NCBI GenBank assembly: GCA_964400745.1
Contig: CAYNVY010000002.1
Span: forward strand, 5,195 to 69,194
Source: an uncultured Enterobacteriaceae bacterium
GTDB lineage: Bacteria > Pseudomonadota > Gammaproteobacteria > Burkholderiales > SG8-39
DNA: 64,000 nt
Direction: 5' to 3'
Of the stretch, positions 39,267 to 59,552 are shown piece by piece (position 1 is the first letter of the stretch; each line of letters begins with the position of its first letter). The notes under the pieces are model-generated. The model was not told the origin of the DNA and did not search any database. It saw nothing but the letters and a program-made list of their open reading frames with translations. Both the position numbers and the translations under genes were made by a program.

Positions 39267-39269
39267 GAA

Positions 39270-43150: not shown

Positions 43151-43909
43151 TTACTGTCCGCGAGGCGTCAATACCTCGACCGTCAATAGCCGCTTTACGC
43201 CCTCGCGCCCGGTCAACTCCATGAGACGCGAACATAGAACGGCGATCGACTGCGGCAGCCACCCTGACAGTCGTGGGTGGGGAATATCGTGAATTTTGAA
43301 AAACAGACCCGGGCACAGCCGCTTTACGTCCTCCAGGATGGCGGAAAGGGATTGTGGATTATTCCAGGCCTGGTAAATCACGATAAGGCCGGCTTCATTC
43401 AACTGGTCAGCGAAATACCGGATAAACGACGCCTGTGCCGGCGCGTCCGCGTTCCTGGTAAACGGGTAGAACTCAAAGCAGAATATCAGATCGAACCGGC
43501 CAAGGGGCCCGGCATCTGGAGATATCGCCTCCGCCTTGAATTCCGCGGCCGGATATCTGGCGCTGGCGTACGCTACCGCGTCAGCTGAAATGTCTATCCC
43601 GAGCACCTTGGCGTCCTTGAAGCATTGCGCCAGTGCAACGGTCGTAAATCCAAGCCCGCATCCCGCGTCCAGGATGTTTCCTGCCTTGTTCAGTCCGAGA
43701 TTCAGTCCAAGAGATCGAACGATCGTCTGCACCTTGCGCAGGGGCTGCACGTCATTGTGGTTGGCGATCATCGTACGTTCTGGATCGTCACCCAGGAGCA
43801 TGCGCCGGTAGGAACCGAAATCGCTCTTTGGATCGAGTGCGGTAACTTCGTTTATCGAACGAATCTTTTCTTCGTCTTCCTTAAGCTGCTTCGGATGCCA
43901 CCATTCCAT
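43151..43909 (-). CDS. Class I SAM-dependent methyltransferase
   Basis: ILDAGCGLG, GIDIS, FDLIFC. Confidence 0.82.
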   Translation of the reverse strand: MEWWHPKQLKEDEEKIRSINEVTALDPKSDFGSYRRMLLGDDPERTMIANHNDVQPLRKVQTIVRSLGLNLGLNKAGNILDAGCGLGFTTVALAQCFKDAKVLGIDISADAVAYASARYPAAEFKAEAISPDAGPLGRFDLIFCFEFYPFTRNADAPAQASFIRYFADQLNEAGLIVIYQAWNNPQSLSAILEDVKRLCPGLFFKIHDIPHPRLSGWLPQSIAVLCSRLMELTGREGVKRLLTVEVLTPRGQ

Positions 43910-43989
43910 TGCGAATCCCTGTAATTTGCGCAGTCGATGCTTTGTGCCAGAGCTGCGGCGCCCGGCCGCGATAGCCAGTCAGGTTCGAG

Positions 43990-45786
43990 TCAATCGTCTA
44001 GCGGAGAACGCACTTCGGCAAATCCCCCCCCACCCGGGGCCGGCACCTGTTTTAGATCCAGCACAAACCAATCGCCTTCCCCCGCCTTGCGAGGTGTTGG
44101 CACGAACCCCTGGCCTGCATAGAACTCCTCCACCTGGCTATTCTTGGCCGTGGGAATGTACTGACCCAGTATGCGCTGAGTTCCACGCCGGCGGGCCAAA
44201 TGCATCGCTTCGGCAAGAAACCGGCCTTCTATGCCCCGCCCCAAGGCACGGCACGAAAGCAGCAGCGTATCGACGACCGCCTCGTCGCCCTGGTAGCGAA
44301 TCACGCAAGTCCCGACGATACCCATGTCGCCGAACTTGTCAGCCACCCTCAGCCAAAGGACTTCGTGGTCCGGCGATTCTGAGAAGCTTCGAATGTCGGC
44401 GTCCGAATAGCGCCGCGACGTGAGATTGAACTGGTTGGTCTTCTGGGTCTGCTGCGCTATGCGCGGTATGCTCATCGCATCGGCGCGGCCGATGTGCAGC
44501 TTCATCTCCAGTGAGCGGCAATAGCTCTCAAGATCCGAACACTTGGCCCGCTCGCGCTGGCGCCCGCTTTCGGCCTGATACAACGCGCCGCGCTTTCGAT
44601 CCTCATCCGTAATGCGCGGGAGATCGAAAGCGCCGCAGGCCGCCAATATCCAGCGATAGTCGGACGGGCGCGCAGGGGGCAGTTGCAGCACCTGAACCTC
44701 CGGCACCATGCTCCGGGCGAGATCGGCCTCGAAGGGGCTGTCGTCCGCGAAGACAAGGCTGTCGATGCCGATATTCAATTCCGCGGCGATGTCGCGCAGA
44801 TTGCCCGCTTTGTCCCGCCAATTGATGCGCCAGGCCGCTATGTGCTCCGGCTTGAGCACCATGTCCGGGTGCCGCTCGAACACTTCCATCACGTCCGCCT
44901 CGTTGTTCTTGCTGCATATGGCCAGGATGACTCCGCGGCGATGCAAGGACAAGACCTCGCGCTGGAACTCGACAAACGCGGAACCGGGATGGCCGCTTCC
45001 GAGCTTGATCCCTTCCAGCCCGTCCTCGCCCACAATGCCGCCCCAAAGCGTATTGTCGCAATCAAGCACGAGACATTTACGCGCCCTTCCCTTCAAGGCC
45101 CGCAGGTACTTGAAATCTTCCCTGGCGATTTCTGCCAGGGCCAGGCGCGAGTAGGGCGACCGGGCGAGCTGCCAATAACGCAAATCGTAGAACTGGCGCG
45201 CCCCAATGCGGGCCAGGCATGTCTCCATGCTCACCAGATAGGCGTTATCAACAGAGGACAGGGCCAGCCGCAGCCCCTCGTTCAACCTGGCCACCACAGC
45301 CAATTGCCCGCATGCCAGTTGTGCGTCCTGAATCCCCATTGCGGGATACAGCGGCGCCTCCAGGCCGTGCCAGAGGATCATGGCATTGGACTGTTTCCGA
45401 ATGCCGCGGACTACGGTCCCGAACAAGGCGACCAGCCTGGCCACTTCCTCCTCCACCTGCGCCGGGGAAAGGGCGGAAAAGCCGGTATCCAACAAGGTGC
45501 TCAGGGCCGGAAGCGGCGCAAACACGAGTGCTGCGTCCAGATCGCGGTGCAGCAACTCCGGCGCCCCGCCCAATGCCTCCTGCACGAGGTTATCGAATCC
45601 GCCGAAGGCGACATCCGCACGAAACCCAAGCTCATAGGCCATGTACTGGAGATAGCCCTGGATCGATTCCATCGTTACGTTGCGCAGTACGGCCAGGCGC
45701 ATGCGCGGGAGATCGCCGATCTCCGGCGCGGACAGACGATCCTCAATTTCGGCCAGTGTCGGCAGCGGCGGTTCGATGTAGAGCAT
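43990..45786 (-). CDS. FkbH-like glyceryl-ACP synthase (HAD-IIIC)
   Basis: KCLVLDCDNTLWGG, SKNNE, FADDSPFE, KTNQFNLT, LLSCRALGR. Confidence 0.93.
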   Translation of the reverse strand: MLYIEPPLPTLAEIEDRLSAPEIGDLPRMRLAVLRNVTMESIQGYLQYMAYELGFRADVAFGGFDNLVQEALGGAPELLHRDLDAALVFAPLPALSTLLDTGFSALSPAQVEEEVARLVALFGTVVRGIRKQSNAMILWHGLEAPLYPAMGIQDAQLACGQLAVVARLNEGLRLALSSVDNAYLVSMETCLARIGARQFYDLRYWQLARSPYSRLALAEIAREDFKYLRALKGRARKCLVLDCDNTLWGGIVGEDGLEGIKLGSGHPGSAFVEFQREVLSLHRRGVILAICSKNNEADVMEVFERHPDMVLKPEHIAAWRINWRDKAGNLRDIAAELNIGIDSLVFADDSPFEADLARSMVPEVQVLQLPPARPSDYRWILAACGAFDLPRITDEDRKRGALYQAESGRQRERAKCSDLESYCRSLEMKLHIGRADAMSIPRIAQQTQKTNQFNLTSRRYSDADIRSFSESPDHEVLWLRVADKFGDMGIVGTCVIRYQGDEAVVDTLLLSCRALGRGIEGRFLAEAMHLARRRGTQRILGQYIPTAKNSQVEEFYAGQGFVPTPRKAGEGDWFVLDLKQVPAPGGGGFAEVRSPLDD

Positions 45787-45837
45787 ATTAGGGAATGGTC
45801 GGTCAGAAAGTTGGATAGGGGAACGCTTGTTCGAAAT

Positions 45838-47295
45838 CTACCCGGCCTGGACTGCTGCGAATCCGTTGAGCAGATTCAGCATGACCGGAAGCGAGTCCTG
45901 GTTGCGAACCGGCAGCAGGCTCGCGGTCTGGTCGGTCGCGAGCCTCGGCAAGCGCGGATTGGCAATCCGTAGGCCGGGATTGCGCCGGACCAGAGCGTGG
46001 CAGAGCACTTCGCCGGCCGCCTTGGCGGCACAATATTCGATCATATCGGATGGCAGTTCGTCTAAGGCCACCGTCGACGGACAAAACGCGCCTTCGAGCC
46101 CCACGGAACTCAAGTGTTCCACCAATTGCGCGAAGCCGCTGACATAGTAATCGCAGAAGCGGTCGAACAATTCGGCAGAGAACCGGGAGCGCGTCCCGAC
46201 AAAAATTGGGGGCGTCGCAAAATAGTACAAGTGGGTCGGCCACCACCCGTCGGGAAGCGCGCTTTCAGGGACAAGCGGCGCACGAACATCCAGTGCGACC
46301 GCGCGCGCCTTGCCGCCGTGTGAAAGAATTTCGGCAACCACTGCCTCGGCTTCGCTGCGCCCCCGGTGATAGGTGAGGCAGACGTCCGCCCCACCGGCGG
46401 CCAACACCTTCGCCGTGAGTTCCCCCAAGCCCCTTGAACCGCCCACCACCAACGCGCGCTGAGTGCAAAACGCAGTCCGCGAGACGACTCGTGTTGCCAA
46501 TTCCTGCATCGACGCCTGCCGGGTTGGCGGCGGACGCAGGAAAGCACGCACGGTCCCGGAAAGACCCGCGCCCTCCACCCCCACCGTGAGGAGGCCGAAG
46601 CGACGATCGAAGCGAAGGACGCGATAGCTCACGCGGCTCGGCGCTTCGCCCGTCCGGTGCGGTATTTGCGCCAGTTCAAGCTCGGAATACAGCGAATACA
46701 GACCGGGACATTCCATGCCGACGAGCCGGCTGGTGTTTGCAAGCAGAATCGGCAAGCCTTCGCCGCACAGGTCGACGAGCGCTGGAAAAAGCCGTGCTGC
46801 ATGGCCGGTTTCGACCGGCATCACCCATCCGCCCGACCTGCCCTCCAATTCGTCCATCCCGAGTTCGATCGGCGTAGCGGAAGCAGGCGTGCCGGCCACG
46901 GCAGGCAAAGCGCGGACGGGCGCATCGTTTCCTGGCACAAATTCGACCAGCATTGCATCCCCTCCCGGAACCGTGACCTCTAGCCGAACCTTGCCGGATG
47001 CGTCAACGCCACGATCGCGACAGATCGCTGGCTCCCCAATCAAGATTGGGCGCGTGAACTCGACATGCAGGCTTGCGACGCTGCTGGCGCCGCCGCGCTT
47101 TCCGGCCCAGCATTCCAGCGCCCAGAGAAGGGTGTGAACGCCGTGCACGACCAGTTCGCCGGCAGGACAGCGACGGGCGTGCAGCGGATCGACGTGCAGG
47201 GGATTGCGGTCGCCGGAAAAGTCGGCGAATGCCAATTGATCTTCCAGCGAGAACATACGCTCGCCTAGAATCGGCAGCATTGCTTCAGGTGCCAT
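45838..47295 (-). CDS. MaoC-type dehydratase fused to an SDR ketoreductase
   Basis: FADFSGDRNPLHVD and VVHGVH (hot-dog fold), then ALVVGGSRGLG and YCAAK. Confidence 0.88.
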   Translation of the reverse strand: MAPEAMLPILGERMFSLEDQLAFADFSGDRNPLHVDPLHARRCPAGELVVHGVHTLLWALECWAGKRGGASSVASLHVEFTRPILIGEPAICRDRGVDASGKVRLEVTVPGGDAMLVEFVPGNDAPVRALPAVAGTPASATPIELGMDELEGRSGGWVMPVETGHAARLFPALVDLCGEGLPILLANTSRLVGMECPGLYSLYSELELAQIPHRTGEAPSRVSYRVLRFDRRFGLLTVGVEGAGLSGTVRAFLRPPPTRQASMQELATRVVSRTAFCTQRALVVGGSRGLGELTAKVLAAGGADVCLTYHRGRSEAEAVVAEILSHGGKARAVALDVRAPLVPESALPDGWWPTHLYYFATPPIFVGTRSRFSAELFDRFCDYYVSGFAQLVEHLSSVGLEGAFCPSTVALDELPSDMIEYCAAKAAGEVLCHALVRRNPGLRIANPRLPRLATDQTASLLPVRNQDSLPVMLNLLNGFAAVQAG

Positions 47296-47304
47296 CTGCG
47301 CGCT

Positions 47305-48210
47305 TCATTTTTTCCATCGGGCGGGATTGACATACACCTCGTCGTCGACTGCAAACTGCCGCAGACGCTCCATGGCGCCAGGCGGCAAGGGCGAATCCGC
47401 GGTGGCGAGGATTTCCTCCCACTGGCGCACCTGTTCGCAACCTACGATGATCCTATCGGCGTCGGCGCAATGCAGACTGAACCCGAGCGCAGCCTGCAGA
47501 GGCGGTACGCCCAATTCCTGGTATGCAGTCCAAAGGCGCGCATGGTGGGCGCGCAATGCGCGGAAATGCTCAGGGAGGCGCTCCGGAGGCATGAGCAGCA
47601 CCCCCTGCAGGAATGCGCTGCGCAAATGCACTTCGACCCCCCGCGACTTGGCGACGCAGGACAGCCCGCTTGTGACGTAGCGCTGGTCGTATATGTTGTA
47701 GGGAACCTGGACCAGATCGAGTTGATACCGAGCCAGCAATTCGGCAAACTCTGCCGGCCGGTAGAGGGAACACCCGATCTTCTCAACCATGCCTTCCGCG
47801 CGCAACTCCTGGAGGCGCTTCCACAACGCGTTGCCGGCAGGCCCCAGCAGATCATCCGCATGATGCACCAGAAGGCCATATACCGCCGTACCGCCAAGCG
47901 TCGACAGCGAAGCGCGAAACGCCTCTTCCACCAGGTCCGCGGACTCGGCGGGGGTTTTGTCCGTGCCCTTGAGCGGTCGGGTCTTAGTCACCACCTTGAA
48001 CCCGGCGGCAACGGCGCGGTGCTCGCCGAGCGCGCGTTCCGCGTCACCGTACGCCCATGCGGTATCCAGCGTTGTCACGCCGGATTCCCGCGCCCTTTTC
48101 AGTATGGCTGACACGTCCGCCGCCGGCGCGACGCCGCTTTGATTTGCGATCCCGTAGCTCATGCCCCACTGGACCGTGCCCAGCCCCAGGCGCTGCGCGG
48201 CGCTCAGCAC
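47305..48210 (-). CDS. Aldo/keto reductase
   Basis: LGLGTVQWG, DTAWAYG, VVTK, LLVH, RSAFLQG. Confidence 0.9.
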   Translation of the reverse strand: MLSAAQRLGLGTVQWGMSYGIANQSGVAPAADVSAILKRARESGVTTLDTAWAYGDAERALGEHRAVAAGFKVVTKTRPLKGTDKTPAESADLVEEAFRASLSTLGGTAVYGLLVHHADDLLGPAGNALWKRLQELRAEGMVEKIGCSLYRPAEFAELLARYQLDLVQVPYNIYDQRYVTSGLSCVAKSRGVEVHLRSAFLQGVLLMPPERLPEHFRALRAHHARLWTAYQELGVPPLQAALGFSLHCADADRIIVGCEQVRQWEEILATADSPLPPGAMERLRQFAVDDEVYVNPARWKK

Positions 48211-49352
48211 CCGAGAGCCCGCGAAAGCACGGACACCACGTAGTCCTGGTCGTCGCCGGACAGCCGCGGGTGCAAGGGAAGGGTGATGGCTTGGTTACCG
48301 TGGCGCTCCGCTTCTGGAAAACTCCCCTCCACGCGGCCGGGGAGACGGTAATAGGGCTGCAGATGAACCGGCGTGTAATGCACGTTGACCAGGATGTCTT
48401 CGGCGCGCATCGCTTCGAACACGGCCCGCCGGTTCTCCTCGACGTGGACGACATACAGATGCCAAGCCGAGACATTGCCATTGGCCAATTGCGGCCTCCT
48501 TATCGGCAATGCTGCCAGAAGCGCGTCATAGCGCCGCGCCAGTTCCTGACGGCGCGCCAAGTAGCCGTCGAGACGCTGCAACTGGCTCAGGCCCAGGGCG
48601 GCGTGGATGTCCGACAATCGATAGTTGAATCCAAGCATTTGCTGCTCGTAGTACCACTGCGGCGCCGAAACGCCCTGATGGAGCAGCTTCGGGTCGCGGG
48701 TGATGCCATGAGCCCGCAGCATCAGCATGCGCTGGGCCAGCATGGCATCGTTGGTCAGGGCCATGCCGCCCTCGGCCGTGGTGATGATCTTTACCGGATG
48801 AAAGCTGAAAACGGTGATGTCCGACCAGCGGCAGCTGCCGACGGGCTCGCCATTTCTTGACGCGCCGATGGCGTGCGAGGCGTCTTCCAGGACCTTGAAG
48901 CCGAATTCCCGGGCAAGATCCCATATCGCTTCCTGGTCGGTGGGCTGGCCGGCAAAATGCACCGGCACCAGGACCTTGGGCAGGCTGTGTTCCCGTCGGG
49001 CGCGAACCAGTTTTTCCTTCAGGCAAGGCACGCTCAAATTCATGCTTGCCGGATCGATATCGACAAAGTCCACATCCGCGCCGCAATAGCGGCCGCAATT
49101 GGCCGACGCCACGAACGTATTGGGTACGGTCCAAAGGCGGTCGCCGGGCCCCAAGTCCAGCGCCAGGCAGGCGATGTGCAGCGCCGAGGTTGCGCTGTTG
49201 ACCGCCACCGCATGATGCGCGCCCACACGCGCGCGCACGGCCTGTTCGAATTCACCAATCGTGGGCCCTTGCGTAAGATTTTCCGAACACAGCACCTTTA
49301 CCACTGCGTCGATATCGCTCTGGGTGATGTCCTGCCGGCCGTAAGGGATCAT
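48204..49352 (-). CDS. pseC: UDP-4-amino-4,6-dideoxy-N-acetyl-beta-L-altrosamine transaminase
   Basis: MIPYGRQ, LTQGP, NSATSALH, EDASHAIG, FSFHPVKIITTAEGG, WYYEQQMLGFNYR. Confidence 0.95.
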   Translation of the reverse strand: MIPYGRQDITQSDIDAVVKVLCSENLTQGPTIGEFEQAVRARVGAHHAVAVNSATSALHIACLALDLGPGDRLWTVPNTFVASANCGRYCGADVDFVDIDPASMNLSVPCLKEKLVRARREHSLPKVLVPVHFAGQPTDQEAIWDLAREFGFKVLEDASHAIGASRNGEPVGSCRWSDITVFSFHPVKIITTAEGGMALTNDAMLAQRMLMLRAHGITRDPKLLHQGVSAPQWYYEQQMLGFNYRLSDIHAALGLSQLQRLDGYLARRQELARRYDALLAALPIRRPQLANGNVSAWHLYVVHVEENRRAVFEAMRAEDILVNVHYTPVHLQPYYRLPGRVEGSFPEAERHGNQAITLPLHPRLSGDDQDYVVSVLSRALGC

Positions 49353-49476
49353 CGAATACCTTCTGGGTGTTTTGGAGCGGCGGTTTGCAAACATGTCAGG
49401 CGGTCGGATCGACTGCGCGTGCGAAATTCAACGCCGTGGACGGCAGTGCAACGCGCCATCCAGGCAAGAAGCGGTT

Positions 49477-50670
49477 TCACGCCCGTCCGGCCGCCGCCCC
49501 GGCGATCAATTGCTCGAGGAAGACGTGGGTGGGGTTCTCGTCGTCGTTGTTGATGACATAGGGCACCATCTCCCTGGTCTTGGCTGCGTAAGACTCGTCG
49601 CTGAGTGCGAGTATTTTCATTACGCGCCCGGCAAAGGCTTCGTAACTGTCTTCCTTAAGACTCCAGATTCCGTCGACGCAGAAATCCCACAGCGGATTGC
49701 CGGAGAAATTGCAGAACAGCGCCCTGTCGCCCCGGCTCAGACCTTCGCGCAATGCCGTGGACACCATGGCAAGCGAGAGACGGCTTCTCGAAATCAGTCC
49801 GTAGGTCGTGAACTGCTCGCGAACCCGAGGGGTAATGCGCACGTCATTCCCGATGTACTTTTCGTACCAAATCAACTCCGCATCAAGGGAGTGAATGTCG
49901 GCCCGATTCTCCTGCGGGGTAGCGTCCCGTTTGCCCGCGATGACCAGCCTCAAGCCCCGTTCTCGGGCTAGACGCACCGCGTATTGCGCAATCCGGCCGA
50001 CCGCATCCTCGAATCCGGGATATCTCAGATCCCAACCCGGCGAAGCCTCCGCTACCACGCACAGGTCATAGTCGAAGCGTTCGCTTTTGAACGCCTGCGC
50101 CGCCGCCCGAAAGCGGCGAAAGTAGGCTTCTCTCAATGAGCCAACGGGATAGAAGCGCTCCACATGCGCTCCCCTGCCCAGGTAAAGTTCCTTTTCGTAT
50201 TTGCCAAAACACGCGTACTCCGGAATGAAGATGCGCCTGGCGGCAGCCTCCGTCAGTTCGAGCACATCGTAGCGTGCGGCGTTCTGGATCGCCAGATAGC
50301 GCCTGCGGCGATGATCCGCGCGGGCCATATCGTGGAACAGTTCGGAGTTGTCGATATAGGTGATCACGATGCGCGGCGCGAACTGTCGGACCAGAGCCAC
50401 AAAATAAGCCGTCCGAAATGGCGTGCCCCGCAAGAGCAACAGGAACCACTGAAGAATGACGCTCCAGGAAAGGCGCAGCCTGGTCATGGTCACTTCCAGC
50501 GGCGCCACTCTGGCACTACCGCAAAGAGGCAGAATATAGTCGATATTGGCCAATTCGAAGATGACGACATCAACCGGCTTCATGGCGCCCCATTGAACCT
50601 CGAGAGCGCGTGCCCATAGTGAGATCCGCTCCAGGCGGCGCAACAGTTTCCCCCGCATCGCCGCGTTCAC
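49477..50670 (-). CDS. Surface-carbohydrate biosynthesis protein, candidate GT-B ulosonate transferase
   Basis: ITYIDNS, AIQNAAR, ACFG, PVGSLR, STALREG. GTGA overlap; position within the NeuB block. Function inferred. Confidence 0.5.
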   Translation of the reverse strand: MNAAMRGKLLRRLERISLWARALEVQWGAMKPVDVVIFELANIDYILPLCGSARVAPLEVTMTRLRLSWSVILQWFLLLLRGTPFRTAYFVALVRQFAPRIVITYIDNSELFHDMARADHRRRRYLAIQNAARYDVLELTEAAARRIFIPEYACFGKYEKELYLGRGAHVERFYPVGSLREAYFRRFRAAAQAFKSERFDYDLCVVAEASPGWDLRYPGFEDAVGRIAQYAVRLARERGLRLVIAGKRDATPQENRADIHSLDAELIWYEKYIGNDVRITPRVREQFTTYGLISRSRLSLAMVSTALREGLSRGDRALFCNFSGNPLWDFCVDGIWSLKEDSYEAFAGRVMKILALSDESYAAKTREMVPYVINNDDENPTHVFLEQLIAGAAAGRA

Positions 50671-51500
50671 CAAACCGAGCGTCCGCCATCCATCACGACG
50701 TTCTGTCCGTTCATGTAGGATGACGCGCCGGAGCAAAGGAATTGGATCGCCGCCCGGTATTCGTCCCGCGTCGCCATCCGGCCAAGCGGAATCAATGCGC
50801 TGAGGCGTTGGACAAACGCCTCCCCCTGGCCATTGAATACACCGCCCGGTGACAGCGCATTGGCACGCACGTTCTTGTCAGCCCAATATGTGGCGAGGTA
50901 GCGTGTCAACCCTACCAAGCCCGCTTTGATTACTGAGTACGTTACGGGTTTTACTGGCTGCAGTTCGTCCGGAAGTCCGTCTTTTCTATACAGCCGCTGA
51001 TCCGGCGAAAAGACCGAAAGGTCCGAGGCGATATTCAGGATCACCCCACCTTTTCCATCCCTCGCCATAGCCGCGCCAAAAACCTGGCTGCACAAGAATG
51101 CCCCGGTCAGCCCGACTGCAATCTGCAAATCCCATTGTTCCAGGGGGAAGTTTTCGAGCCGGGAGGTTTCCAGGACGCCTTCATCACCCTTGACTTTCGG
51201 GTCGATTGCGGCGTTGTTGACCAAAACGTCGATACGAGTACCGACGAACCATAACGATTCGGCAACGGTGCGTATCGCGGCGAGCCGGGTCACGTCCATA
51301 ACCCGGGTGACTATCTTTTCCCGAGCGAAGTCTGACGCCAGCGCATTCCGGGCTGTTTCCAGCGCGGGCTCGGAAAGATCTGTCAGAACCACGGTCGCGC
51401 CGCTTTCCAGCAGAGCGGCAGCGTGCTCCAACCCGAGCAAACCTGCGGCTCCTGTAATGAGCGCGGTCTTTCCGCTTAGATCGAATTTCTTGGATGCCAT
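50667..51500 (-). CDS. SDR-family oxidoreductase (PtmA-like)
   Basis: TGAAGLLG, NNAAIDP, YSVIK, NALSPGG. Confidence 0.9.
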   Translation of the reverse strand: MASKKFDLSGKTALITGAAGLLGLEHAAALLESGATVVLTDLSEPALETARNALASDFAREKIVTRVMDVTRLAAIRTVAESLWFVGTRIDVLVNNAAIDPKVKGDEGVLETSRLENFPLEQWDLQIAVGLTGAFLCSQVFGAAMARDGKGGVILNIASDLSVFSPDQRLYRKDGLPDELQPVKPVTYSVIKAGLVGLTRYLATYWADKNVRANALSPGGVFNGQGEAFVQRLSALIPLGRMATRDEYRAAIQFLCSGASSYMNGQNVVMDGGRSVW

Positions 51501-51530
51501 TGCGTATTGCCTCGATTTGACGGGCTTGTC

Positions 51531-52286
51531 TCAGGACCGGACCTGGCCGCCGTCAAGCGTCCAGATGCCGCCGGTTGCGAAGCCGGCGCGGGAGGATGCC
51601 AAATAGACCGCCAGACTGGCTACTTCGTCCGGCGTTCCCAATCTCGACAAGGAAACGTCGCGCTCCAACATTTCGTGAACCATTTTTTCATTCTCGTACA
51701 GCTTTCGCGACCAGACGGAGCCGTCAAACAAGATGTTTCCGGGCGCGATTGCGTTGATTCGCACGCCGAGCCTGCCGAGGGGGCGGGCAATGCCACGCAC
51801 GTATGCGTTAAGGGCAGCCTTGGCACTCGAATATGTCACTGGGGCGCCCGGAATGACTTCAAGCCCGCAAATGGACGACACGCAGACTATTGCGCCCTTG
51901 CTCGCCGCAAGCGCCTCACGTGCCGCTTCAACCGTGTTTGTGGTGCTCCAAAGGTTCAGGGCGAACACCCGCTGCCACTCCTCCGGCGATTCCTCACCGG
52001 GAGGCACCGACCGACCGCTGCCTACGTTGCAGACGAGAATATCCAGCCGTCCCAATGACTTGATCGCCTCCGCGACGATTCGTCGCGCCTCCTCCGGGCG
52101 CGTGACATCCCCCGCCACGGACAGGGCACCGGGGAGGGCCGCTGCCGCCGCGGCAACGGCATCTGCGGTTCGGCCATTGAGTGCCACCTTGCATCCCTCG
52201 GCATGCAATGCTTTCGCGATGGCATGCCCGATTCCTTTGGAGGAACCCGTGACAAGCGCAGTTTTACCGGAGAGTCCAAGCAACAT
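51531..52286 (-). CDS. SDR-family oxidoreductase
   Basis: TGSSKGIG, YSSAK, NAIAPG, DGG. Confidence 0.9.
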   Translation of the reverse strand: MLLGLSGKTALVTGSSKGIGHAIAKALHAEGCKVALNGRTADAVAAAAAALPGALSVAGDVTRPEEARRIVAEAIKSLGRLDILVCNVGSGRSVPPGEESPEEWQRVFALNLWSTTNTVEAAREALAASKGAIVCVSSICGLEVIPGAPVTYSSAKAALNAYVRGIARPLGRLGVRINAIAPGNILFDGSVWSRKLYENEKMVHEMLERDVSLSRLGTPDEVASLAVYLASSRAGFATGGIWTLDGGQVRS

Positions 52287-52381
52287 GTTCGATGTCGGTA
52301 CTTTTTCGATCAATGACTCGGGTCAAACACAGGTGCTGGCATGCCAGCGTGATGCACGCTGCTGATTGCTCATCCCCGCCC

Positions 52382-53221
52382 CTACAGTCCGAATTGTCTG
52401 ATCCAACCGATCACCATATCGCGATAGGAGCACAGGGTTTCGGCGTGATTCGAATCGGTCGCTCGAGCCGTCTGCAGGATATAGTTTCCTCGATACCCAA
52501 TCTGCGCGAGTTCCGCAAACACCGCTTGAAAATCCGCGCTGCCGGTCCCGAGCGGTACCGTAGTACCACCGAGTACTCGATCTTTGACGTGGACATTGAC
52601 GATCCGTCGGCCATAAGCGGCAAACTCGTCCCGAGGGAGAAAGCCGAGGGCGGCGCTGTTGCCGATGTCATAGTTGATGCCGAACAGGGCTGGATCGAGA
52701 CGGTCAATGAAACGAGCGAGATCTTCCGGAGCAAAATCCGATTCGAATATCACACGAAGACCTTTGGCCGAGAAAAGCGGCGATTGCGCCTGCAAAAAAT
52801 CGATCAACGCCTCTTCCTGCTCACCGGTATCCAGCCGGCCGTTGTCGACCAGTGGCACCACAATCATGTCGATGCCCACAACTGCGCACGCGTCGGCGAT
52901 CGCCACGAAGTCCTTCTTCAGCGCCTTCCCTTGCTCCGCCTCTGCCTTCCAAAACGGTGCCTGCATGAAGCAATCGCCAGTGAGCGAAGGGATACCAATT
53001 CCGTGGCGGAGGCCGAGATTGCGGATTTCCCCCTGACCCGCGGGGGTCAGCAATGGGTTCTCGAAGAGGCGATCCTGATCCAGCGTCCATTCCATCAAAC
53101 GGAGGCCGCATTTCTCGGCAACCGGAAATTCGCCTGCCCATGACTCCCATGGAAACGCCTGGATGCGGCCATCGACCAACGGCGATAGCCGGCCTTGCAT
53201 GAAGCCAATGCGATTATTCAC
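52382..53221 (-). CDS. Sugar-phosphate isomerase/epimerase (xylose-isomerase-like TIM barrel)
   Basis: IGFMQGRLSP, IFESD, NYDIGN, VHVKDR, VPLGTG. GTGA overlap start. Confidence 0.85.
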   Translation of the reverse strand: MNNRIGFMQGRLSPLVDGRIQAFPWESWAGEFPVAEKCGLRLMEWTLDQDRLFENPLLTPAGQGEIRNLGLRHGIGIPSLTGDCFMQAPFWKAEAEQGKALKKDFVAIADACAVVGIDMIVVPLVDNGRLDTGEQEEALIDFLQAQSPLFSAKGLRVIFESDFAPEDLARFIDRLDPALFGINYDIGNSAALGFLPRDEFAAYGRRIVNVHVKDRVLGGTTVPLGTGSADFQAVFAELAQIGYRGNYILQTARATDSNHAETLCSYRDMVIGWIRQFGL

Positions 53222-54207
53222 TTTGGCTTGAAACGGTACGGTGTCGGCGCGCTGCCTTTTACCGACGAATCCCGCGCTGCATCCCATGCCTGAATCTGCC
53301 GGACAATATCGACACCGGTGTTGTCGCTCCAACGGCGCAGCAACTTGCCGAATATCTCGCCTGTTTTCCCCGAGCCAATCGCGCTGCCATTAAGCGACGT
53401 CACCGGCAACATGCTAAACGGCGTTCCTGTCATGAAAGCTTCGTCGGCGGTATAGACATCATAGGCGTTGAAGTTCTTCTCGACGACGGGAATGCCCAAC
53501 TGCGGACAAAGCTCCTGCATCACGTAGTCGCGTGAAACACCTCTGAGGATATTTCGGCCTTCCGGCGAAATGACGGCGCCGTTCTTGACGATGAAAAAAT
53601 TATCGCCCGTGCCTTCGGCAATGAAGCCGTCGGGATCGAGCAGGAGCGCCCAGTTGTTGTCCCCTTCGATCTGCGATGCCTCTATATTCGCCATCAAGTA
53701 ATGTATCCGGCTGCGATTCTTCACCTTCGGATCAAGCAGATCGGCCGGAATGGCGCGCTGCGAAGTGATGACGGCGTTGATTCCTGTTGCAAACAATTGC
53801 GCCATGCCGACAACCGTCCAGCGCAGCGGAAAGTCGGCGATGATGACATTCGGCCCCTTGTGCAGGCCTTCGATTCCCTGATAGATTCCGAGCAACCCTC
53901 GGGAGACATCGATCATCAGCCTGTGCTCATCGTCCGCCGCAAACAGATGGTCGTTCGCGTCGATGGTTTGATAGCAGGCCTGTTCCATTGCTTCGGGCGT
54001 CATCTGGAGGGGAATTCTGAGAATCTTGATTCCGGCGTACAGGCGTTCGATATGTTCCCGCAATTTGAATTGCTTCTTGTTGAACGACCGCGTCATCTCG
54101 AACACCATGTCGCCGAACATCAAGGCAGAGTCATAAATGGAGATCTTCGCCTCGCTTTCGGGGACAAGCTTTCCATTGAAATAGACGACGCGTGTGGCAT
54201 TACTCAT
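53218..54207 (-). CDS. Class IV (branched-chain-type) aminotransferase
   Basis: FGDMVFE, HIERL, AEGTGDNFF, ILRGVSR, ADEAFMTGT. Confidence 0.9.
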   Translation of the reverse strand: MSNATRVVYFNGKLVPESEAKISIYDSALMFGDMVFEMTRSFNKKQFKLREHIERLYAGIKILRIPLQMTPEAMEQACYQTIDANDHLFAADDEHRLMIDVSRGLLGIYQGIEGLHKGPNVIIADFPLRWTVVGMAQLFATGINAVITSQRAIPADLLDPKVKNRSRIHYLMANIEASQIEGDNNWALLLDPDGFIAEGTGDNFFIVKNGAVISPEGRNILRGVSRDYVMQELCPQLGIPVVEKNFNAYDVYTADEAFMTGTPFSMLPVTSLNGSAIGSGKTGEIFGKLLRRWSDNTGVDIVRQIQAWDAARDSSVKGSAPTPYRFKPK

Positions 54208-54219
54208 CGGGAGGCACCC

Positions 54220-54981
54220 TCATGGTTGAGATTGGCTGGCAAGCTTTTCGGGGCAATATACCGTGTCATACCAGCGGATGATGTCGGTAATGTGGAATTG
54301 GGAGTTTCGCGGGTAGAGATATTCATAGAGCCGTCGCATGAATTCGTACTGCTCCTGAGTATTGACGTCCAGCACCAGGTCCGGGCGCCGGAACTCGGCA
54401 GGGCATTTGATCGTACTGATTGGACACCATTTCGCATCCACCGCCTGGCTGCGACTGTAGTCGTAGAAATTGAGATGGACGTGTTCGCGCTGGCGAGGGT
54501 CGCTATGCCTTTCCCTCGCCTCGGCCAACAGGGAGAAATCGAACATTTCGGCACCGATCCCGTCCGGATACTCGGAATCCCCTATCACCGACAGATTGGA
54601 GGAAAAACCTCTATGACCCAAGGACAGATGGTGATCGGCGATCCGGTCTATTTCAGACGCCTCGGGCGTCGCGTTGTCGGCGGGCAGCCGGCCGACAATA
54701 TCCGCCTTGGTCCAAACCGCCGCCTGGTAGTAGCGCTCGACAAGATCGCTTTCGGATCCCGCGAATACCTTGACGCCATAGCGCTGGCCAAGCTGCTTCA
54801 GCACGGCATCCTTTTCCGTATCGGGAATCGCCAGAACGATATCGTCCAATCGCGTGCAACGCTTGACGCGTTCGAGAATGCGGCCCACCAGCGGCGCGCC
54901 TGCCAAGTCCATCATCGACTTTCCCGGCAGTCGGGTCGAACCCATGCGGGCCTGAATGATCAGGACGACACGCTGTCTCAT
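54220..54981 (-). CDS. Second SpsF-like cytidylyltransferase
   Basis: IIQARMGSTRLPGK, GSESDLVERY, RLPADN, REHVH, LDVNT. Confidence 0.88.
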   Translation of the reverse strand: MRQRVVLIIQARMGSTRLPGKSMMDLAGAPLVGRILERVKRCTRLDDIVLAIPDTEKDAVLKQLGQRYGVKVFAGSESDLVERYYQAAVWTKADIVGRLPADNATPEASEIDRIADHHLSLGHRGFSSNLSVIGDSEYPDGIGAEMFDFSLLAEARERHSDPRQREHVHLNFYDYSRSQAVDAKWCPISTIKCPAEFRRPDLVLDVNTQEQYEFMRRLYEYLYPRNSQFHITDIIRWYDTVYCPEKLASQSQP

Positions 54982-55574
54982 GAATTGGTCTCCGCAAAAT
55001 AGGCCTTCTCAACCAGGCCGCAAACGATATGGCCGATCATGATGTGGCACTCCTGAATGCGGGCCGTCTGCGTCGATGGAACGCAAATGCAGTCGCCTAG
55101 CGACTTCAATCTTCCACCACCCTGGCCGCTCAATCCAATCGTGACGATTTCCCGCTGCTTCGCCGCAGCGACGGCAGCAAGAATATTGGGACTATTCCCG
55201 CTGGTAGAAATGGGGATGAACACGTCACCGGGTCTCGCGATCGCCGCCAGTTCACGGGCAAAGACCTGGTCGTAACCGTAGTCGTTGCCGATCGCGCTCA
55301 TCGCGGAATTGTTGGTGCCCAGCGCTATCGACGGCAGCGGCGCGCGGTCAAACAGGAAGCGCGAAATGAACTCGGCGGCAAGGTGCTGGGCATCGGCAAA
55401 GCTGCCGCCATTCCCGGCGAAAATAAGTTTGCCGCCGGCCCGCAATGACGATAGGCATTGCTTCGCCAGATTTTCGATTTGCCCGACTATGTGCGCATCG
55501 TTCAGCATCGCCTGCTTGACGGCGATGGAAGCACTGACTTGGCGGACAATTTCAACGGACACCGGTTCGCTCAC
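54978..55574 (-). CDS. gmhA: Phosphoheptose isomerase (SIS domain)
   Basis: AGNGGSFADAQHLAAE, IGNDYG, STSGNSPN, TARIQECH. GTGA overlap start. Confidence 0.9.
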   Translation of the reverse strand: MSEPVSVEIVRQVSASIAVKQAMLNDAHIVGQIENLAKQCLSSLRAGGKLIFAGNGGSFADAQHLAAEFISRFLFDRAPLPSIALGTNNSAMSAIGNDYGYDQVFARELAAIARPGDVFIPISTSGNSPNILAAVAAAKQREIVTIGLSGQGGGRLKSLGDCICVPSTQTARIQECHIMIGHIVCGLVEKAYFAETNS

Positions 55575-57463
55575 AGCGTCCCCTCGAGCCGCTCCATTGC
55601 GACCCAGAAGCCTTCGCCGCCGTTCTTGTGTCCTTGCCAGATTTCCGGAATAAACGACGCATTCGGACAACCTTCCTTGAGGATTGCGCCCAACCGCACA
55701 AAATCGATATCCCCTTCGCCCACCTGAAGCCCTTCGCCGTTCAATCCCATGGCGTCGCCCAAATGAAGATGCGCCGTAAATGGAGCGACCCGGCTGCTGA
55801 AGTCGTAGAAGTCGATTCCCATATGATTGCAGGTCAGCCGGCTGTGGGAAACGTCGAAGCACATGCGCAGGCCAAGTGCGCCGCACCACTCGACTATCTC
55901 GTCGATCTTTACGAAGATATTCTGGTAGCGCTGGCCGCCGAAATGCCAGGGAAAGGGCGCCATGGTCTGGGGAATGAGTTCAACGCCTTCCATGTCGAGT
56001 TCGGCAAGGCTCTTGGCAAAGCGCTCGTAATAGCCGCGGATTTCGCGCGCCGGAAGCGGGGCATCCATGGTGAAACCGCCGATATTGGCGACGATGAGCG
56101 GTCTCGGGGTATTGGGGAAAAAGCGCTTCAGATTCCTGGTAATGTCTATCACACGTTGCGTTTCGCGCAGGGATTCAATCCTGTAGGCACTGTCGGGGGT
56201 GGCCAGGTCCATGAGCCGGCTGCCAGCAAACAGCTCCGGCGCGTGAACCACGAAACCGGCAGTGTGTGCGCCTTCCAGAAAATCGGCCGGATCAAGTTCC
56301 ATATCCGAATAGGAAAGATGGAATTCAAACACGTCGGGCCGTATCCGCGCGGCGTATTCCTTGAAATCATGGTAGCGAACCGGAACGCCCCAGGGCCGCG
56401 AAAAGCGGTAGGGCCGCGGCTCGATTCGCTTATCCGACAGATCGGAGGGATAGAAGAAATCCTCTTCCGCGAGGTCATGCTGCAATGTGCGCCCTAGCAG
56501 TTCTTCATAGCGCTGGGGAGACAAACCCTGACCGGGGCTGCGGACCTTGACATGCGCAGCGGCAAGAACGGTTCCCTTGGCAAGGTCGGTGGCCGCCACA
56601 AGGCTTTTCCCCAGGTTCTCCCGGTTGATCATTTCACCTTGGGACAATCGACGCTCTTTACCTTCACCCAGGGCATCTTCGATTTCCCGGATGCCTTCAA
56701 TCATGCGCCTGAATTCGGGGTGCGTAAGGCTCGCCGCATGGTCGGGGCCTTCCATTTCCCGGTCCAGCGTGAAATGGCGCTCTATGACACACGCCCCAAG
56801 CGCGACGGCCGCCAGGGATACATTGATGCCGCGTTCGTGCCCCGAGTAGCCAACCAGTGGATGAATCCCGCGCAATTGATGCATCCATTTTAGGTTGATA
56901 TCGTGAAGCGGCGCCGGGTAGGTGCTGTTGCAGTGAAGCAGCACAAAAAAAGCATTGCGCTTATTGAGGAAATTCACTGTGTATTGGACTTCTTCCGAAC
57001 GACTCATTCCCGTGGAGAGAATCAGGGGCTTCCCCGTGGCTGCGAGTTTGTCCAGAAGCGGAAGATTGGTAAGGTCGGCGGAAGCCACTTTATAGGCGGG
57101 TACGCCAAAGCCTTCGAGGGCGTCGACGCTACGGGCGTCCCAGGGGGTGCAGAGGTAGAGAATGCCCTTCTGCGCGCAATAGCCAGCGAGTCTGCGATGA
57201 TCTTCGACCGGGAGTTCGAAGCGGCGCAGCAGATCCAGGACGTACTCCGTTCCAAGATCTTCGCCGTCCTTGCGCAGGGTGCGCCGACGGTAGACCTCGT
57301 CGAGATGGCGCATCTGGAACTTGGCACAATCTGCGCCCACATCGGCGGCGAGGTCGATCATTTGAACCGCACGGTCGAAATCCCCATTGTGGTTGTTGCC
57401 GATTTCGGCGATGACATAGGTCCGGCCTGATCCTATTTCGTGATTTCCGATGGTGATGGTCAT
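55571..57463 (-). CDS. NeuB-family synthase + SAF + C-terminal xylose-isomerase-like TIM barrel
   Basis: IAEIGNNHNG, GYSGHE, IERHFTLD, GPDHAASL; SAF KVRSPGQG; tail VHAPE, CFDVSH, HLHLGD, PEIWQGH. Confidence 0.92.
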   Translation of the reverse strand: MTITIGNHEIGSGRTYVIAEIGNNHNGDFDRAVQMIDLAADVGADCAKFQMRHLDEVYRRRTLRKDGEDLGTEYVLDLLRRFELPVEDHRRLAGYCAQKGILYLCTPWDARSVDALEGFGVPAYKVASADLTNLPLLDKLAATGKPLILSTGMSRSEEVQYTVNFLNKRNAFFVLLHCNSTYPAPLHDINLKWMHQLRGIHPLVGYSGHERGINVSLAAVALGACVIERHFTLDREMEGPDHAASLTHPEFRRMIEGIREIEDALGEGKERRLSQGEMINRENLGKSLVAATDLAKGTVLAAAHVKVRSPGQGLSPQRYEELLGRTLQHDLAEEDFFYPSDLSDKRIEPRPYRFSRPWGVPVRYHDFKEYAARIRPDVFEFHLSYSDMELDPADFLEGAHTAGFVVHAPELFAGSRLMDLATPDSAYRIESLRETQRVIDITRNLKRFFPNTPRPLIVANIGGFTMDAPLPAREIRGYYERFAKSLAELDMEGVELIPQTMAPFPWHFGGQRYQNIFVKIDEIVEWCGALGLRMCFDVSHSRLTCNHMGIDFYDFSSRVAPFTAHLHLGDAMGLNGEGLQVGEGDIDFVRLGAILKEGCPNASFIPEIWQGHKNGGEGFWVAMERLEGTL

Positions 57464-58848
57464 TATTTTTCGATTTCCACGTGATTCTTTCGCTCGCGCG
57501 CCGTCCATGCGCGAAGTCCTTCCTGCTCGAAGCGGAAGGGGCGTATTTTGAGTCCGGCGCTTTCTAGGTTCGCCATCACCTCATGCTTATGGAACGGCGG
57601 AACAAAGAACAGGAAAAAACCCCCACCCCCCGCTCCCAGAAGCTTGCCTCCGACGGCACCATGGCGCCGGGCGCCCTCGTAGATCTCATCGAGCCGGGCC
57701 GTCGAAATCTTGCTGCTCAACTGGCGTTTGAATTGCCACGCTTCGTGCAGGGATTGCCCAAACTCAAGCAACTTGCCTCGAAGCAACTGGTTGCGCATCC
57801 GGTAAGACAGAGCCACGTTGCTTTGAACCAACTGGCGTACATCCTGCTGTTGCATTTGCTGGCGCTGATCCTGGTGGATATCGCCGGAGTCATGCGTGGT
57901 CCCGGTATCGCACAGGATCAGACTTTCTTCCAACTCCAGCAGGGTGTCCGAATGTATCCTCAGCGGATGCACGATATTCTGGTCCATCCGGAATTCCATG
58001 AAATTGAAGCCGCCGAATACCGTGGCGTACTGATCCTGCCAACCGCCCGCCACACCAAGATAGAGGCGCTCGGCCTGGTATGCGAGTTCGGCGAGTTCGT
58101 GAAGATCCCATTGATCGCGGCGGAATTGGTTAAAGCATCCGAGTACCGCCGCCGACACTACCGCGGATCCTCCTAGCCCCGAATTCATCGGAAAATCCGA
58201 ATGAAGATAGAGTTCAAAGCCGAAATCGGGGTGTATGGCTTTGAGCAGGGATTGAATCAAGCCAAAACGGCCTTCCTGCGCCAACGCCGATCGAAGATCG
58301 TCGGCGCACAGGCATTCAGCGAGGTCGAGCGACCGGATAAGGATCTTTTCATCGTCCCGCAAGCGCAGCGTGGCATGACTGTAAAGGGAAATGGTCGTAT
58401 TGATGACCGCGCCACCTTCGCCGGAAAAGTAGTGGGTCAGGTCCGAACCGCCGCCGCCGAAGCTGATCCGGACTGGAGAGCGGGAACGTGCATAAACCGG
58501 TTCCTCCGCCTGAATCGGCAGATGATCGCGGCTGACGATACCTGCGAGGCGCCGATTCGCATCCAGAAGGGGAATAACCCGAATCCGATGGTCGAGCTTT
58601 TTCAGCAAGACTTCGCGCGGCGTGTCGGGAGCCGCCCACACGAATTCGGCATTTGCACATGAAGCGATAGGCTCGTCCAGCGAAGTCCCGTCCAGCAATT
58701 TTCTGCGTATGTCGCCATCCGTGGCGAGGCCGATTACGGCACCTGCGAGCGTGGTAGTCAGTACGATTCCATGATGATTGGCGTCGATCTGCAGGAGCGC
58801 ATCCCGCAGCGGCGCCCTTTCAAATATCAAGAAATTATTCAGCTGCAC
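57463..58848 (-). CDS. CBS-pair domain fused to a GHMP sugar kinase (HddA-like)
   Basis: N-terminal ATDGDIRR CBS motif; PVRISFGGGGSD, SGLGGS, GGWQDQY, KLLGAGGGGF. Confidence 0.9.
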   Translation of the reverse strand: MQLNNFLIFERAPLRDALLQIDANHHGIVLTTTLAGAVIGLATDGDIRRKLLDGTSLDEPIASCANAEFVWAAPDTPREVLLKKLDHRIRVIPLLDANRRLAGIVSRDHLPIQAEEPVYARSRSPVRISFGGGGSDLTHYFSGEGGAVINTTISLYSHATLRLRDDEKILIRSLDLAECLCADDLRSALAQEGRFGLIQSLLKAIHPDFGFELYLHSDFPMNSGLGGSAVVSAAVLGCFNQFRRDQWDLHELAELAYQAERLYLGVAGGWQDQYATVFGGFNFMEFRMDQNIVHPLRIHSDTLLELEESLILCDTGTTHDSGDIHQDQRQQMQQQDVRQLVQSNVALSYRMRNQLLRGKLLEFGQSLHEAWQFKRQLSSKISTARLDEIYEGARRHGAVGGKLLGAGGGGFFLFFVPPFHKHEVMANLESAGLKIRPFRFEQEGLRAWTARERKNHVEIEK

Positions 58849-59552
58849 AAAAGGCCCTTGCGGTCTGCTTCGACCCAGCGACAGAATCGAAGATAATCAT
58901 CTGGAATGCCGATATCGATGAAATCAGTTTGCAGCGCCACAGCTTTCAAGTTACCGCGGGCAGCAAGCGCCGGAAAGCTGACCCGCTCCAGAGAAAACGG
59001 CAAGCGGTTCCAGTCCTTGAGAATTTCAGCATCCAGATGGCACAAACCGGCATTGATCCAGCCCGCCCCCGCGCCATTGCTTTTTTCATGAAAGGCAGTG
59101 ACATAACCACGAGCGTCGAGTTGCACCCGACCATAGCGACCGGCGTCGCCCAATTCCACCACGGCCATGGCGGGCGCATCGGCCGCGAGGACTTCCCGGA
59201 CGCCGCTGCCGAGCCAGGTGTCCGCATTGGTTACCAAAATACTCCCGGATAGTTGCAACTCCGCGACCGCAAATGCTACTGCCCCGCCCGTTCCCATGGG
59301 AGCGGGTTCTACCAGCCATTGCACTTCGCAATCCTTCAGCAATCCAGCCTGCTCCTGTTTCAGGAAGCCAACGATCAGGTCCGCCTGATGGTGTAACAGA
59401 AAGACAAAGGACCTCAGACCTTGGGCAATCCAATGCTGGATCTGCAGGTAAAGAAACGGCACCTTCCCGACCGGGGCCAACGCCTTGGGAACTTCCGCCA
59501 CTACAGGCAAAAGTCGGGTGCCAAAGCCGCCGGCCAGAACCAGCATCCTCAC
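58839..59552 (-). CDS. Sugar-1-phosphate nucleotidyltransferase (HddC-like)
   Basis: LAGGFGTRL, PKALAP, PMGTGG, NADT, FIDIGIPDD. Confidence 0.88.
   Translation of the reverse strand: MRMLVLAGGFGTRLLPVVAEVPKALAPVGKVPFLYLQIQHWIAQGLRSFVFLLHHQADLIVGFLKQEQAGLLKDCEVQWLVEPAPMGTGGAVAFAVAELQLSGSILVTNADTWLGSGVREVLAADAPAMAVVELGDAGRYGRVQLDARGYVTAFHEKSNGAGAGWINAGLCHLDAEILKDWNRLPFSLERVSFPALAARGNLKAVALQTDFIDIGIPDDYLRFCRWVEADRKGLLCS

Follow-up and report, generated by a model that had tools for sequence, protein, structure and literature searches.

A heptose-activation gene cassette enclosing a NeuB-type synthase with a fused TIM barrel: a candidate route to ten-carbon ulosonic acids

Described systems and the cassette in the window

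Ulosonate synthases that depend on phosphoenolpyruvate (PEP) are known for products of seven, eight and nine carbons; in the papers found, ten-carbon (C10) forms are known from mass spectrometry (MS) only and have no genes assigned to them. The legionaminic (Leg) and pseudaminic (Pse) acid pathways proceed from a nucleoside diphosphate (NDP) sugar through a nucleotidase (LegG or PseG) and a synthase to a cytidine monophosphate (CMP) transferase, and the guanosine diphosphate (GDP) sugar GDP-D-glycero-alpha-D-manno-heptose is made by GmhA, HddA, GmhB and HddC. Here we describe a widespread cassette that joins heptose activation to a sialic-acid-type synthase. It was analyzed in a stretch of 64,000 nucleotides (nt), referred to as the window, from an uncultured Enterobacteriaceae bacterium (assembly GCA_964400745.1, contig CAYNVY010000002.1, positions 5,195 to 69,194), in which a run of ten genes encloses a NeuB-type synthase fused to a TIM barrel. 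Sequence comparison suggests that the cassette probably makes a C10 ulosonic acid, equivalent to 2-keto-3-deoxynononic acid (KDN) plus one CHOH, from D,D-manno-heptose.

Two described synthases share the fused barrel. In the KL1/KL2 capsule of Serratia marcescens, a NeuB with an extra COG1082 domain is required for KDN, a mannose-derived analogue (PMC9000132, in the parts covered). As in the window, the COG1082 sugar-phosphate isomerase/epimerase domain is carried on NeuB and a CMP-transferase (NeuA) is encoded alongside. The Serratia locus differs in that no heptose genes are described in those parts of the paper, whereas the cassette has a CBS pair on HddA, a synthase of 630 residues in a separate clade, and a changed active-site loop. 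The open reading frame (ORF) of the Serratia NeuB, at 2241 bp, is as large as those of the CBS-fused group O defined below, a placement made by domain make-up and length. The nonulosonate synthase of Leptospira interrogans is likewise a NeuB-barrel fusion, with a C-terminal endonuclease-like domain proposed to be a phosphatase (Ricaldi 2012, PMC3438082, in the parts covered). It differs in that N-acetylneuraminic acid (Neu5Ac) was proposed as the product, from a phosphorylated C6 sugar, and the main text covered never uses the word 'heptose'. MS studies have reported C10 ulosonic acids from Magnetospirillum gryphiswaldense (PMC8157484), also as CMP-sugars (SugarBase preprint, bioRxiv 10.64898/2026.04.20.719630), and CMP-activated C10 alpha-keto acids do, according to the parts of these sources covered, exist. 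No genes are assigned to them in those parts, and the preprint supplement may bear on that point. A search of the literature for deculosonic acids and related terms found nothing, although paywalled papers and preprint supplements outside the search could describe them.

Compared with the Leg and Pse pathways, the pathway favored here would follow the same logic, from NDP-sugar to aldose release, PEP addition and CMP activation. It differs in that the cassette lacks LegB/PseB, NeuC/LegG and PseG, the acetamido-binding arginine is absent from the synthase, and a seven-carbon precursor is proposed. With the GDP-heptose pathway, the cassette family shares homologues of all four steps. The differences lie in the sub-cut-off scores, the CBS pair on HddA and the embedded NeuB-type synthase and CMP-transferase, and no GDP-heptose-specific transferase is conserved in the cassettes. 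The ten genes in the window are as follows.

58839..59546, minus strand: HddC-like sugar-1-phosphate guanylyltransferase (Pfam NTP_transferase; start ATG 59546, alternative GTG 59552)
57463..58848, minus strand: CBS pair fused to an HddA-like heptose-7-phosphate 1-kinase (Pfam CBS and GHMP N/C)
55571..57463, minus strand: NeuB-SAF-TIM synthase, 630 amino acids in one frame (NeuB, SAF and AP_endonuc_2)
54978..55574, minus strand: GmhA-like sedoheptulose-7-phosphate isomerase (SIS_2; TIGR00441 175 bits, cut-off 209; PDB 2xbl, E 2.5e-56)
54220..54981, minus strand: predicted ulosonate cytidylyltransferase, SpsF-like (CTP_transf_3)
53218..54207, minus strand: class IV pyridoxal-phosphate aminotransferase (Aminotran_4)
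52382..53221, minus strand: stand-alone AP_endonuc_2 TIM barrel, predicted dehydratase or isomerase (E160/D185/H211, Gln250)
51531..52313, minus strand: classical short-chain dehydrogenase/reductase (SDR) oxidoreductase (start TTG 52313 or ATG 52286)
50667..51500, minus strand: second SDR oxidoreductase (top NCBIfam PRK09186, which we take to be the PtmA flagellin-modification family)
49477..50658, minus strand: orphan, putative ulosonate transferase (no Pfam; weak TIGR04441 LA_1612-family match, E 1e-6)

A sequence-only reading of this DNA had described a largely overlapping run in which the synthase gene overlaps those of the kinase and the isomerase, with no gmhB in the window, and each of these points was borne out. 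Every ORF and named family of the run was recovered with Pfam and NCBIfam. With realistic starts, five of the nine junctions overlap: hddA/neuB by 1 nt (TAATG), neuB/gmhA by 4 nt (GTGA), hddC/hddA by 10 nt, gmhA/CMP-transferase by 4 nt (ATGA) and aminotransferase/TIM by 4 nt. The remaining junctions have gaps of 12, 68-95, 30 and 8 nt. In a genome-wide search, GmhB matches were located solely on contigs C99 and C161. The absence of gmhB is local, as C99 carries a GmhB-like gene that, at E 2.8e-30, does not reach the family cut-off; GmhA, HddA and HddC are encoded in the operon and the GmhB-like protein elsewhere in the genome, which is 88% complete. A second gmhA (C105) and hldE (C36) are also located outside the window's contig. 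In many related cassettes gmhB directly precedes hddC, and the GmhB of one of them (L010) clears the TIGR00213 cut-off.

The top NCBIfam match of the HddC-like protein is HddC (115 bits, cut-off 300), and its top PDB matches, 5xhw/6jq8, are heptose-pathway proteins (E 3e-29), followed by GDP-mannose pyrophosphorylases. The HddA-like kinase domain best matches 4n3o, 3k85 and 4usm (E 1e-59 to 1e-52), with fucokinase at 7e-24; the protein scores 240 bits against a curated NCBIfam cut-off of 600. The top PDB match of its CBS pair is that of arabinose-5-phosphate isomerase (4o9k).

The synthase and its fused barrel

The synthase is composed of NeuB and SAF domains (approximately residues 1-345) and an endonuclease-IV/xylose-isomerase-like barrel (approximately 350-630). 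An AlphaFold model was built from a 40-sequence alignment (predicted local distance difference test, pLDDT, 87), and a single-sequence model (pLDDT 36) was discarded. Residues 1-343 of the model match the NeuB fold (Z 37). In a whole-protein structure search, residues 354-630 matched MJ1311 and tagatose-epimerase-like barrels (Z 20-22) and endonuclease IV (Z 18-21), which are effectively tied. By sequence, the barrel matched only MJ1311 in the PDB (E 0.001), and an NCBIfam search with it yielded no family.

The NeuB of Neisseria meningitidis (1xuu) supplied a test set of residues, E25, K53, Q55, K129, S132, S154, Y186, S213, H215, E234, H236 and D247. Their equivalents in the synthase (E20, K48, Q50, K125, S128, S150, Y182, S207, H209, E228, H230 and D241) are present and invariant in 40 homologues. 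All PEP, metal and catalytic residues of the N. meningitidis enzyme are kept, and Asn74 is replaced by Asp69. Arg314 of NeuB, which binds the 2-acetamido group, corresponds to Ser309 in the synthase, and this serine is invariant across the 40-homologue alignment. The replacement would fit a substrate without a 2-acetamido group. A published NeuB phylogeny lists Arg314 as catalytic, and the parts of its main text that were covered do not mention heptose, fusion or isomerase (PMC8208679). The synthase scores below the equivalog cut-offs for Neu5Ac, Leg and Pse synthases (TIGR03569, 342.7 bits against 399.65; TIGR03586, 252 bits against 340.25). It appears to stand outside those three families and outside the CBS-fused KDN type, and would work in the manner of a NeuB-type ulosonate pathway.

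Among 110 aligned barrels, R363, E380, H382, D387, H407, D537, H540, H567, D570, E577, E607, W609 and H612 are near-invariant. Position 460 is His in 34 of these relatives and Asn in the window protein. Position 499 is Gln in 76 and Glu in 34; Gln is found in the window's clade, where Glu607 is kept. Endonuclease IV carries a three-metal ligand set, and ketose 3-epimerases a motif of two glutamates. Read against these motifs, the fused barrel may retain a metal site resembling that of endonuclease IV, in which ligands have changed. A two-glutamate ketose 3-epimerase of the UlaE or tagatose-epimerase (DTE) type was ruled out, with Gln499 in place of one catalytic Glu. The sequence-only reading had offered a hydrolase or an epimerase, and the former fits better: with one of the two epimerase glutamates missing, the barrel is more likely to hydrolyze a phosphate bond than to epimerize a sugar. 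The two TIM barrels of the window (52382-53221; 55571-56428) lack opposite glutamates of the epimerase motif, the stand-alone barrel reading E...Q and the fused barrel Q...E.

The same C10 product could be made by an animal-like route, in which NeuB would condense heptose-7-phosphate with PEP to a 10-phosphate and the barrel would serve as the phosphatase, with GDP-heptose as a second product. We regard this route as unlikely. The endonuclease-IV-like barrel, whose His and Glu ligands are restored in 34 of the 110 aligned relatives, would suit it, as would the weak Nfo and CbiR matches found in relatives and the translational coupling of gmhA to the synthase. No separate ulosonate-phosphate phosphatase was seen in the cassette, and a phosphatase is the role proposed for the Leptospira barrel (PMC3438082, in the parts covered). 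Yet the route needs GmhA only, whereas the occurrence of HddA and HddC matches that of the synthase more closely than the occurrence of GmhA does, and both are kept in the Maf-only island described below; in addition, the basic residue of group O at position 243 is Ala here.

Clade H and its coupling to heptose genes

The NeuB-barrel fusion is common, with 6370 of 7997 scored clusters matching the barrel (threshold E <= 1e-10), and within the window's class it was present in 6 of 400 genomes (one genome unscored). Loci were sampled as the best 80 of 312 genome loci, 80 metagenome loci, 5 further genomes and the window. Neighborhoods were annotated by tiling and Pfam, as all-versus-all ORF clustering was too noisy. 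A total of 151 complete NeuB-SAF-TIM ORFs were retained, with NeuB >280 and barrel >230 amino acids in one frame, and truncated or frameshifted ORFs were excluded. Measured against the NeuB domain of the window protein, their identities form two modes, <=56% (group O) and >=62% (clade H).

The two groups differ in where CBS and hddA are found. In clade H (n = 102), CBS is fused to the synthase in 0 of 102, and CBS-hddA lies <=1.5 kilobases (kb) upstream in 88 of the 89 loci with enough flank. In group O (n = 49), 37 synthases are CBS-fused and hddA lies <=1.5 kb upstream in 3 of 40, of which L102 and L110 owe it to a tandem clade-H copy and the third is the divergent L084. In the single clade-H exception, Ca. 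Njordibacter, CBS-hddA, hddC and gmhB are found intact at a distance of 45 kb, and a broken hddA was rejected there after the gene was checked. A tree built from 40 O rows and 26 H rows, the latter being alternate rows of the 51 left after dereplication, recovered clade H as monophyletic (support 0.994), and the clade spans at least Pseudomonadota, Bacteroidota, Spirochaetota and Desulfobacterota. Among loci with flanks of >=4 kb on each side, the following were found within 10 kb of 36 non-Bradyrhizobium H synthases: hddA in 35, hddC in 30, gmhA in 27, gmhB in 16 and the CMP-transferase in 33. The corresponding counts for 25 O loci were 2, 2, 1, 1 and 22. Across all 73 clade-H loci with such flanks, a CTP_transf_3 gene was within 10 kb in 70. 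The best-kept cassette genes are those without a housekeeping stand-in. The association of the synthase with heptose genes goes beyond local chance: its co-occurrence with gmhA, hddA and hddC, proposed as a check in the sequence-only reading, is tight in clade H for hddA and hddC, and looser for gmhA (27 of 36 loci; 4 of 27 bradyrhizobia).

The clades also differ in sequence. The loop after the substrate-binding Asp241 changes from GNDH(K/R)VS in group O to GPDHAAS in clade H; position 243 is Ala in the window synthase and Lys or Arg in 32 of 37 group-O rows. The clade-H barrel is changed at four conserved positions (415, 502, 514 and 575). In 94 of 96 cases, the CBS of an HddA fusion was closer to that of NeuB fusions than to the four CBS domains taken as controls, a likeness consistent with a kinase recruited between CBS and synthase. 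Natural CBS-HddA-NeuB long fusions were sought, and among the matches listed there were only two HddC-HddA-type fusions, a weak indication.

In L102 (7580-14900) and L110 (2809-7856), gmhB-hddC-CBS/hddA comes immediately after the gene for a CBS-fused synthase of the KDN type and, in L102, is followed by a clade-H synthase. L084 (9041-13000, minus strand) carries a divergent synthase of 48% identity with CBS-hddA and hddC, which shares several clade-H residues and branches outside clade H. The two natural fusions noted above (P0272 and P0273; 840 and 961 amino acids) join a nucleotidyltransferase (and a HAD phosphatase) to the HddA kinase. In a plasmid search the full protein was covered in 1 of 74 matching records, which is unannotated, and no RNA holder was among the matches listed.

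Coupling was also assessed within one genus. Of 121 Bradyrhizobium genomes, which are kin and for which no statistical test is claimed, 27 carry a clade-H synthase and 3 an O-type one. A strong HddA match was found in exactly the 27 clade-H carriers and in 0 of the 94 others, with weaker, unrelated matches in four other genomes. Of the 27 carriers, 26 had a full-length HddC-GmhB fusion and the other a partial one; a full-length fusion was present in 0 of 94. The three O-type genomes have gmhB nearby, but the 20 kb inspected showed neither hddA nor hddC.

The smallest context is a flagellar island of Desulfuromonas sp. (L019), arranged as fliW-[hddC, CBS-hddA, synthase, CMP-transferase, two methyltransferases, PF01973 Maf]-fliC-fliC. 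Maf proteins are flagellin ulosonate transferases that use CMP-ulosonates and are related to GT42 (10.1101/2020.06.03.131540, in the parts covered). No transferase besides Maf and no heptosyltransferase was recognized in the island. Elsewhere in this genome, gmhA- and gmhB-like genes are on other contigs, and the synthase is the only strong NeuB. As no heptosyltransferase was recognized, the HddA/HddC product would most simply serve as the precursor for the synthase. Two further loci (L016 and L017) are likewise flagellar, and coupling of hddA/hddC to the synthase was seen in O-antigen, capsule-like and flagellar contexts.

These contexts bear on whether the cassette instead has two products that are independent of each other: a heptosyltransferase would use its GDP-heptose, and a C9 ulosonate would arise from an ordinary C6 precursor, the two being co-inherited since one glycan needs both. 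The sequence-only reading had held this as its alternative, and it is weakened by the clade coupling and the Maf-only island; we consider it rather improbable. GT2 and GT4 genes do occur in the wider window cluster and in some related loci, and sugar-pathway genes are frequently interleaved. Against it, the coupling persists across all three contexts, the CBS on HddA is closest to that on NeuB (with few controls for comparison), and the cassette has no dedicated C6 precursor gene: NeuC, LegG, PseG and dehydratase genes for a C6 precursor were not found among its ten genes, and the genome's single Epimerase_2 gene is on a different contig from the window. The genome has two NeuB genes, both inside the window, and the second belongs to a downstream Pse-type set with PseC, PseG, PseB, a 354-residue NeuB and its own cytidylyltransferase. 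As this set has its own NeuB and CMP-transferase, its C6 precursor genes serve its own synthase.

The Pse-like set (32165-49394, minus strand) also contains an aldo-keto reductase, a MaoC-SDR fusion, FkbH, a formyltransferase, a GNAT protein, a class III aminotransferase, a PIG-L deacetylase, an ATP-grasp protein, a homocitrate/isopropylmalate-synthase-like enzyme and an LIC12162 transferase, and likely adds an unusual N-acyl group. Elsewhere in the window, a long ORF (3895-8031, minus strand) joins YjbH to a PAP2 domain and adjoins a GfcB/YjbF gene.

Proposed pathway and significance

Gene content, order, coupling, domain make-up, co-occurrence and residue changes were directly observed in these loci, and the cassette is real, old and coupled to heptose genes. 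The substrates and products in the pathway that follows are all inferred. GmhA, HddA, GmhB (encoded elsewhere in this genome) and HddC would produce GDP-D-glycero-D-manno-heptose, and the fused barrel is predicted to hydrolyze it to free heptose. The NeuB domain would then condense heptose with PEP to C10H18O10, which by NeuB stereochemistry would be 3-deoxy-D-erythro-D-galacto-dec-2-ulosonic acid. The cytidylyltransferase would form the CMP-sugar, and the orphan, or an LIC12162-type enzyme, would transfer the sugar onto a surface glycan; an LIC12162-family gene frequently occupies the slot of the orphan in related cassettes. This particular route to a C10 product, through GDP-heptose and a hydrolyzing barrel, is put forward tentatively, a little short of an even call. 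HddA catalyzes the first step not shared with lipopolysaccharide heptose synthesis, and its CBS pair may provide feedback control. CBS on NeuB in the sister group and on HddA here is as expected of one feedback-controlled pathway. The ligand of the KdsD CBS pair is CMP-Kdo, a point on which the papers found offer no support.

That a heptose-derived aldose feeds NeuB and yields a C10 ulosonate, CMP-activated and tailored, had been proposed in the sequence-only reading. This proposal gains strong comparative support from the clade-specific HddA/HddC coupling, the Maf-only island, the lost acetamido arginine and the changes beside the substrate-binding Asp; the product and the enzyme activity are still inferred.

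The tailoring genes vary more. Of the 77 loci that extend 6 kb downstream, approximately 67 have the stand-alone barrel and two SDRs after the synthase; a class IV aminotransferase occurs in 15, a class III in 13 and both in 0 of the 77. In bradyrhizobia a third SDR takes the place of the aminotransferase, and minimal cassettes have no tailoring genes. The stand-alone barrel has an invariant Gln (Gln250 in the window) where UlaE has its second catalytic Glu. Speculatively, the gene pattern would fit an oxidation-elimination-reduction that leaves a ketone, then aminated or reduced, on a GDP- or CMP-sugar; in the window, the SDR pair and the stand-alone barrel might oxidize, dehydrate and re-reduce the tail, and the aminotransferase might aminate the ketone.

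The aldose might also be a higher sugar other than D,D-manno-heptose: an epimer, a GDP-heptose tailored beforehand, or an octose like that used for lincosamides. The ulosonate would then be a C11 acid or a C10 acid of a different kind. The SDR, TIM and aminotransferase enzymes could act on the GDP-sugar prior to hydrolysis. All heptose-like enzymes of the cassette are divergent, and lincomycin synthesis uses GmhA/HddA/GmhB/HddC homologues on an octose. No transaldolase was seen in the cassettes inspected, though, the minimal cassettes have no tailoring genes, and the best structural relatives are heptose enzymes, so that we find such a substrate quite improbable. Bradyrhizose, a branched C10 carbocycle, was set aside as a product, as it has no carboxylate and no need for CMP activation.

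Several points weigh against a heptose-derived C10 product made by way of a hydrolyzing barrel. HddA, HddC and GmhA all score below their curated NCBIfam cut-offs, so the chain length of the substrate is assumed. The larger cluster in the window has GT2 and GT4 genes whose products might use GDP-heptose directly. The endonuclease IV metal ligands of the barrel are partly lost (His to Asn460, Glu to Gln499 and the third-site His to Gly578), and we know of no GDP-sugar hydrolase of this barrel fold. The C10 acids of M. gryphiswaldense, in the parts of the sources covered, are diamino and more deoxygenated, corresponding to Pse/Leg plus CH2 and not to KDN plus CH2O. The loci were collected by word patterns from two queries, and many are kin (37 of 73 Bradyrhizobium-like). 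Finally, gmhA was found in 4 of the 27 clade-H bradyrhizobia compared to 29 of the 94 others. Across the 121 genomes (G401-G525), hldE is present in all and gmhA in 33, and gmhA is absent from the waaF-hldD-hldE locus in 3 of 5 genomes inspected (L186-L190). These results indicate that the gmhA gap is genus-wide and not specific to the cassette. The gap is softened by the hldE data, yet the heptose source in gmhA-less carriers is unexplained. The presence of hldE without gmhA suggests an unrecognized source of heptose-7-phosphate in the genus.

The gmhA gap also bears on the possibility that the HddA-, GmhB- and HddC-like enzymes activate a hexose, for example mannose-6-phosphate to GDP-mannose, so that the product would be a C9 KDN-type acid, then aminated and methylated. 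The sister-type Serratia enzyme makes KDN (PMC9000132, in the parts covered), 23 of the 27 bradyrhizobia that bear the cassette yielded no gmhA, and the sub-cut-off scores and the second-best GDP-mannose pyrophosphorylase matches of HddC point the same way. On the other side, gmhA is present in 27 of the 36 non-Bradyrhizobium loci, the active-site changes are specific to clade H, and L102 and L110 each have an O-type gene in tandem with an H-type one, which implies different products. ManB and ManC, moreover, already make GDP-mannose. We judge a C9 product improbable on this balance.

The broader proposal is that this NeuB clade, across at least four phyla, makes C10 sialic-acid homologues from heptose, with the fused barrel as a new kind of GDP-sugar hydrolase; we hold it as evenly poised. 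For the predicted product, C10H18O10 (mass 298.090), the calculated m/z is 415.135 for the 1,2-diamino-4,5-methylenedioxybenzene (DMB) adduct and 602.124 for the CMP-sugar. A defined cassette, a predicted mass and cultured carriers (among them Bradyrhizobium centrosematis LMG 29515, B. yuanmingense CCBAU 10071 and Daejeonella sp. H1SJ63) make the C10 question experimentally direct. If the proposal is true, the sialic-acid family would be extended by one carbon, a function would be assigned to a fused barrel found in >6000 sequence clusters, and the cassette would be the genetic basis of a whole class of deculosonic acids, so far unrecognized, that would decorate flagella and surface glycans.

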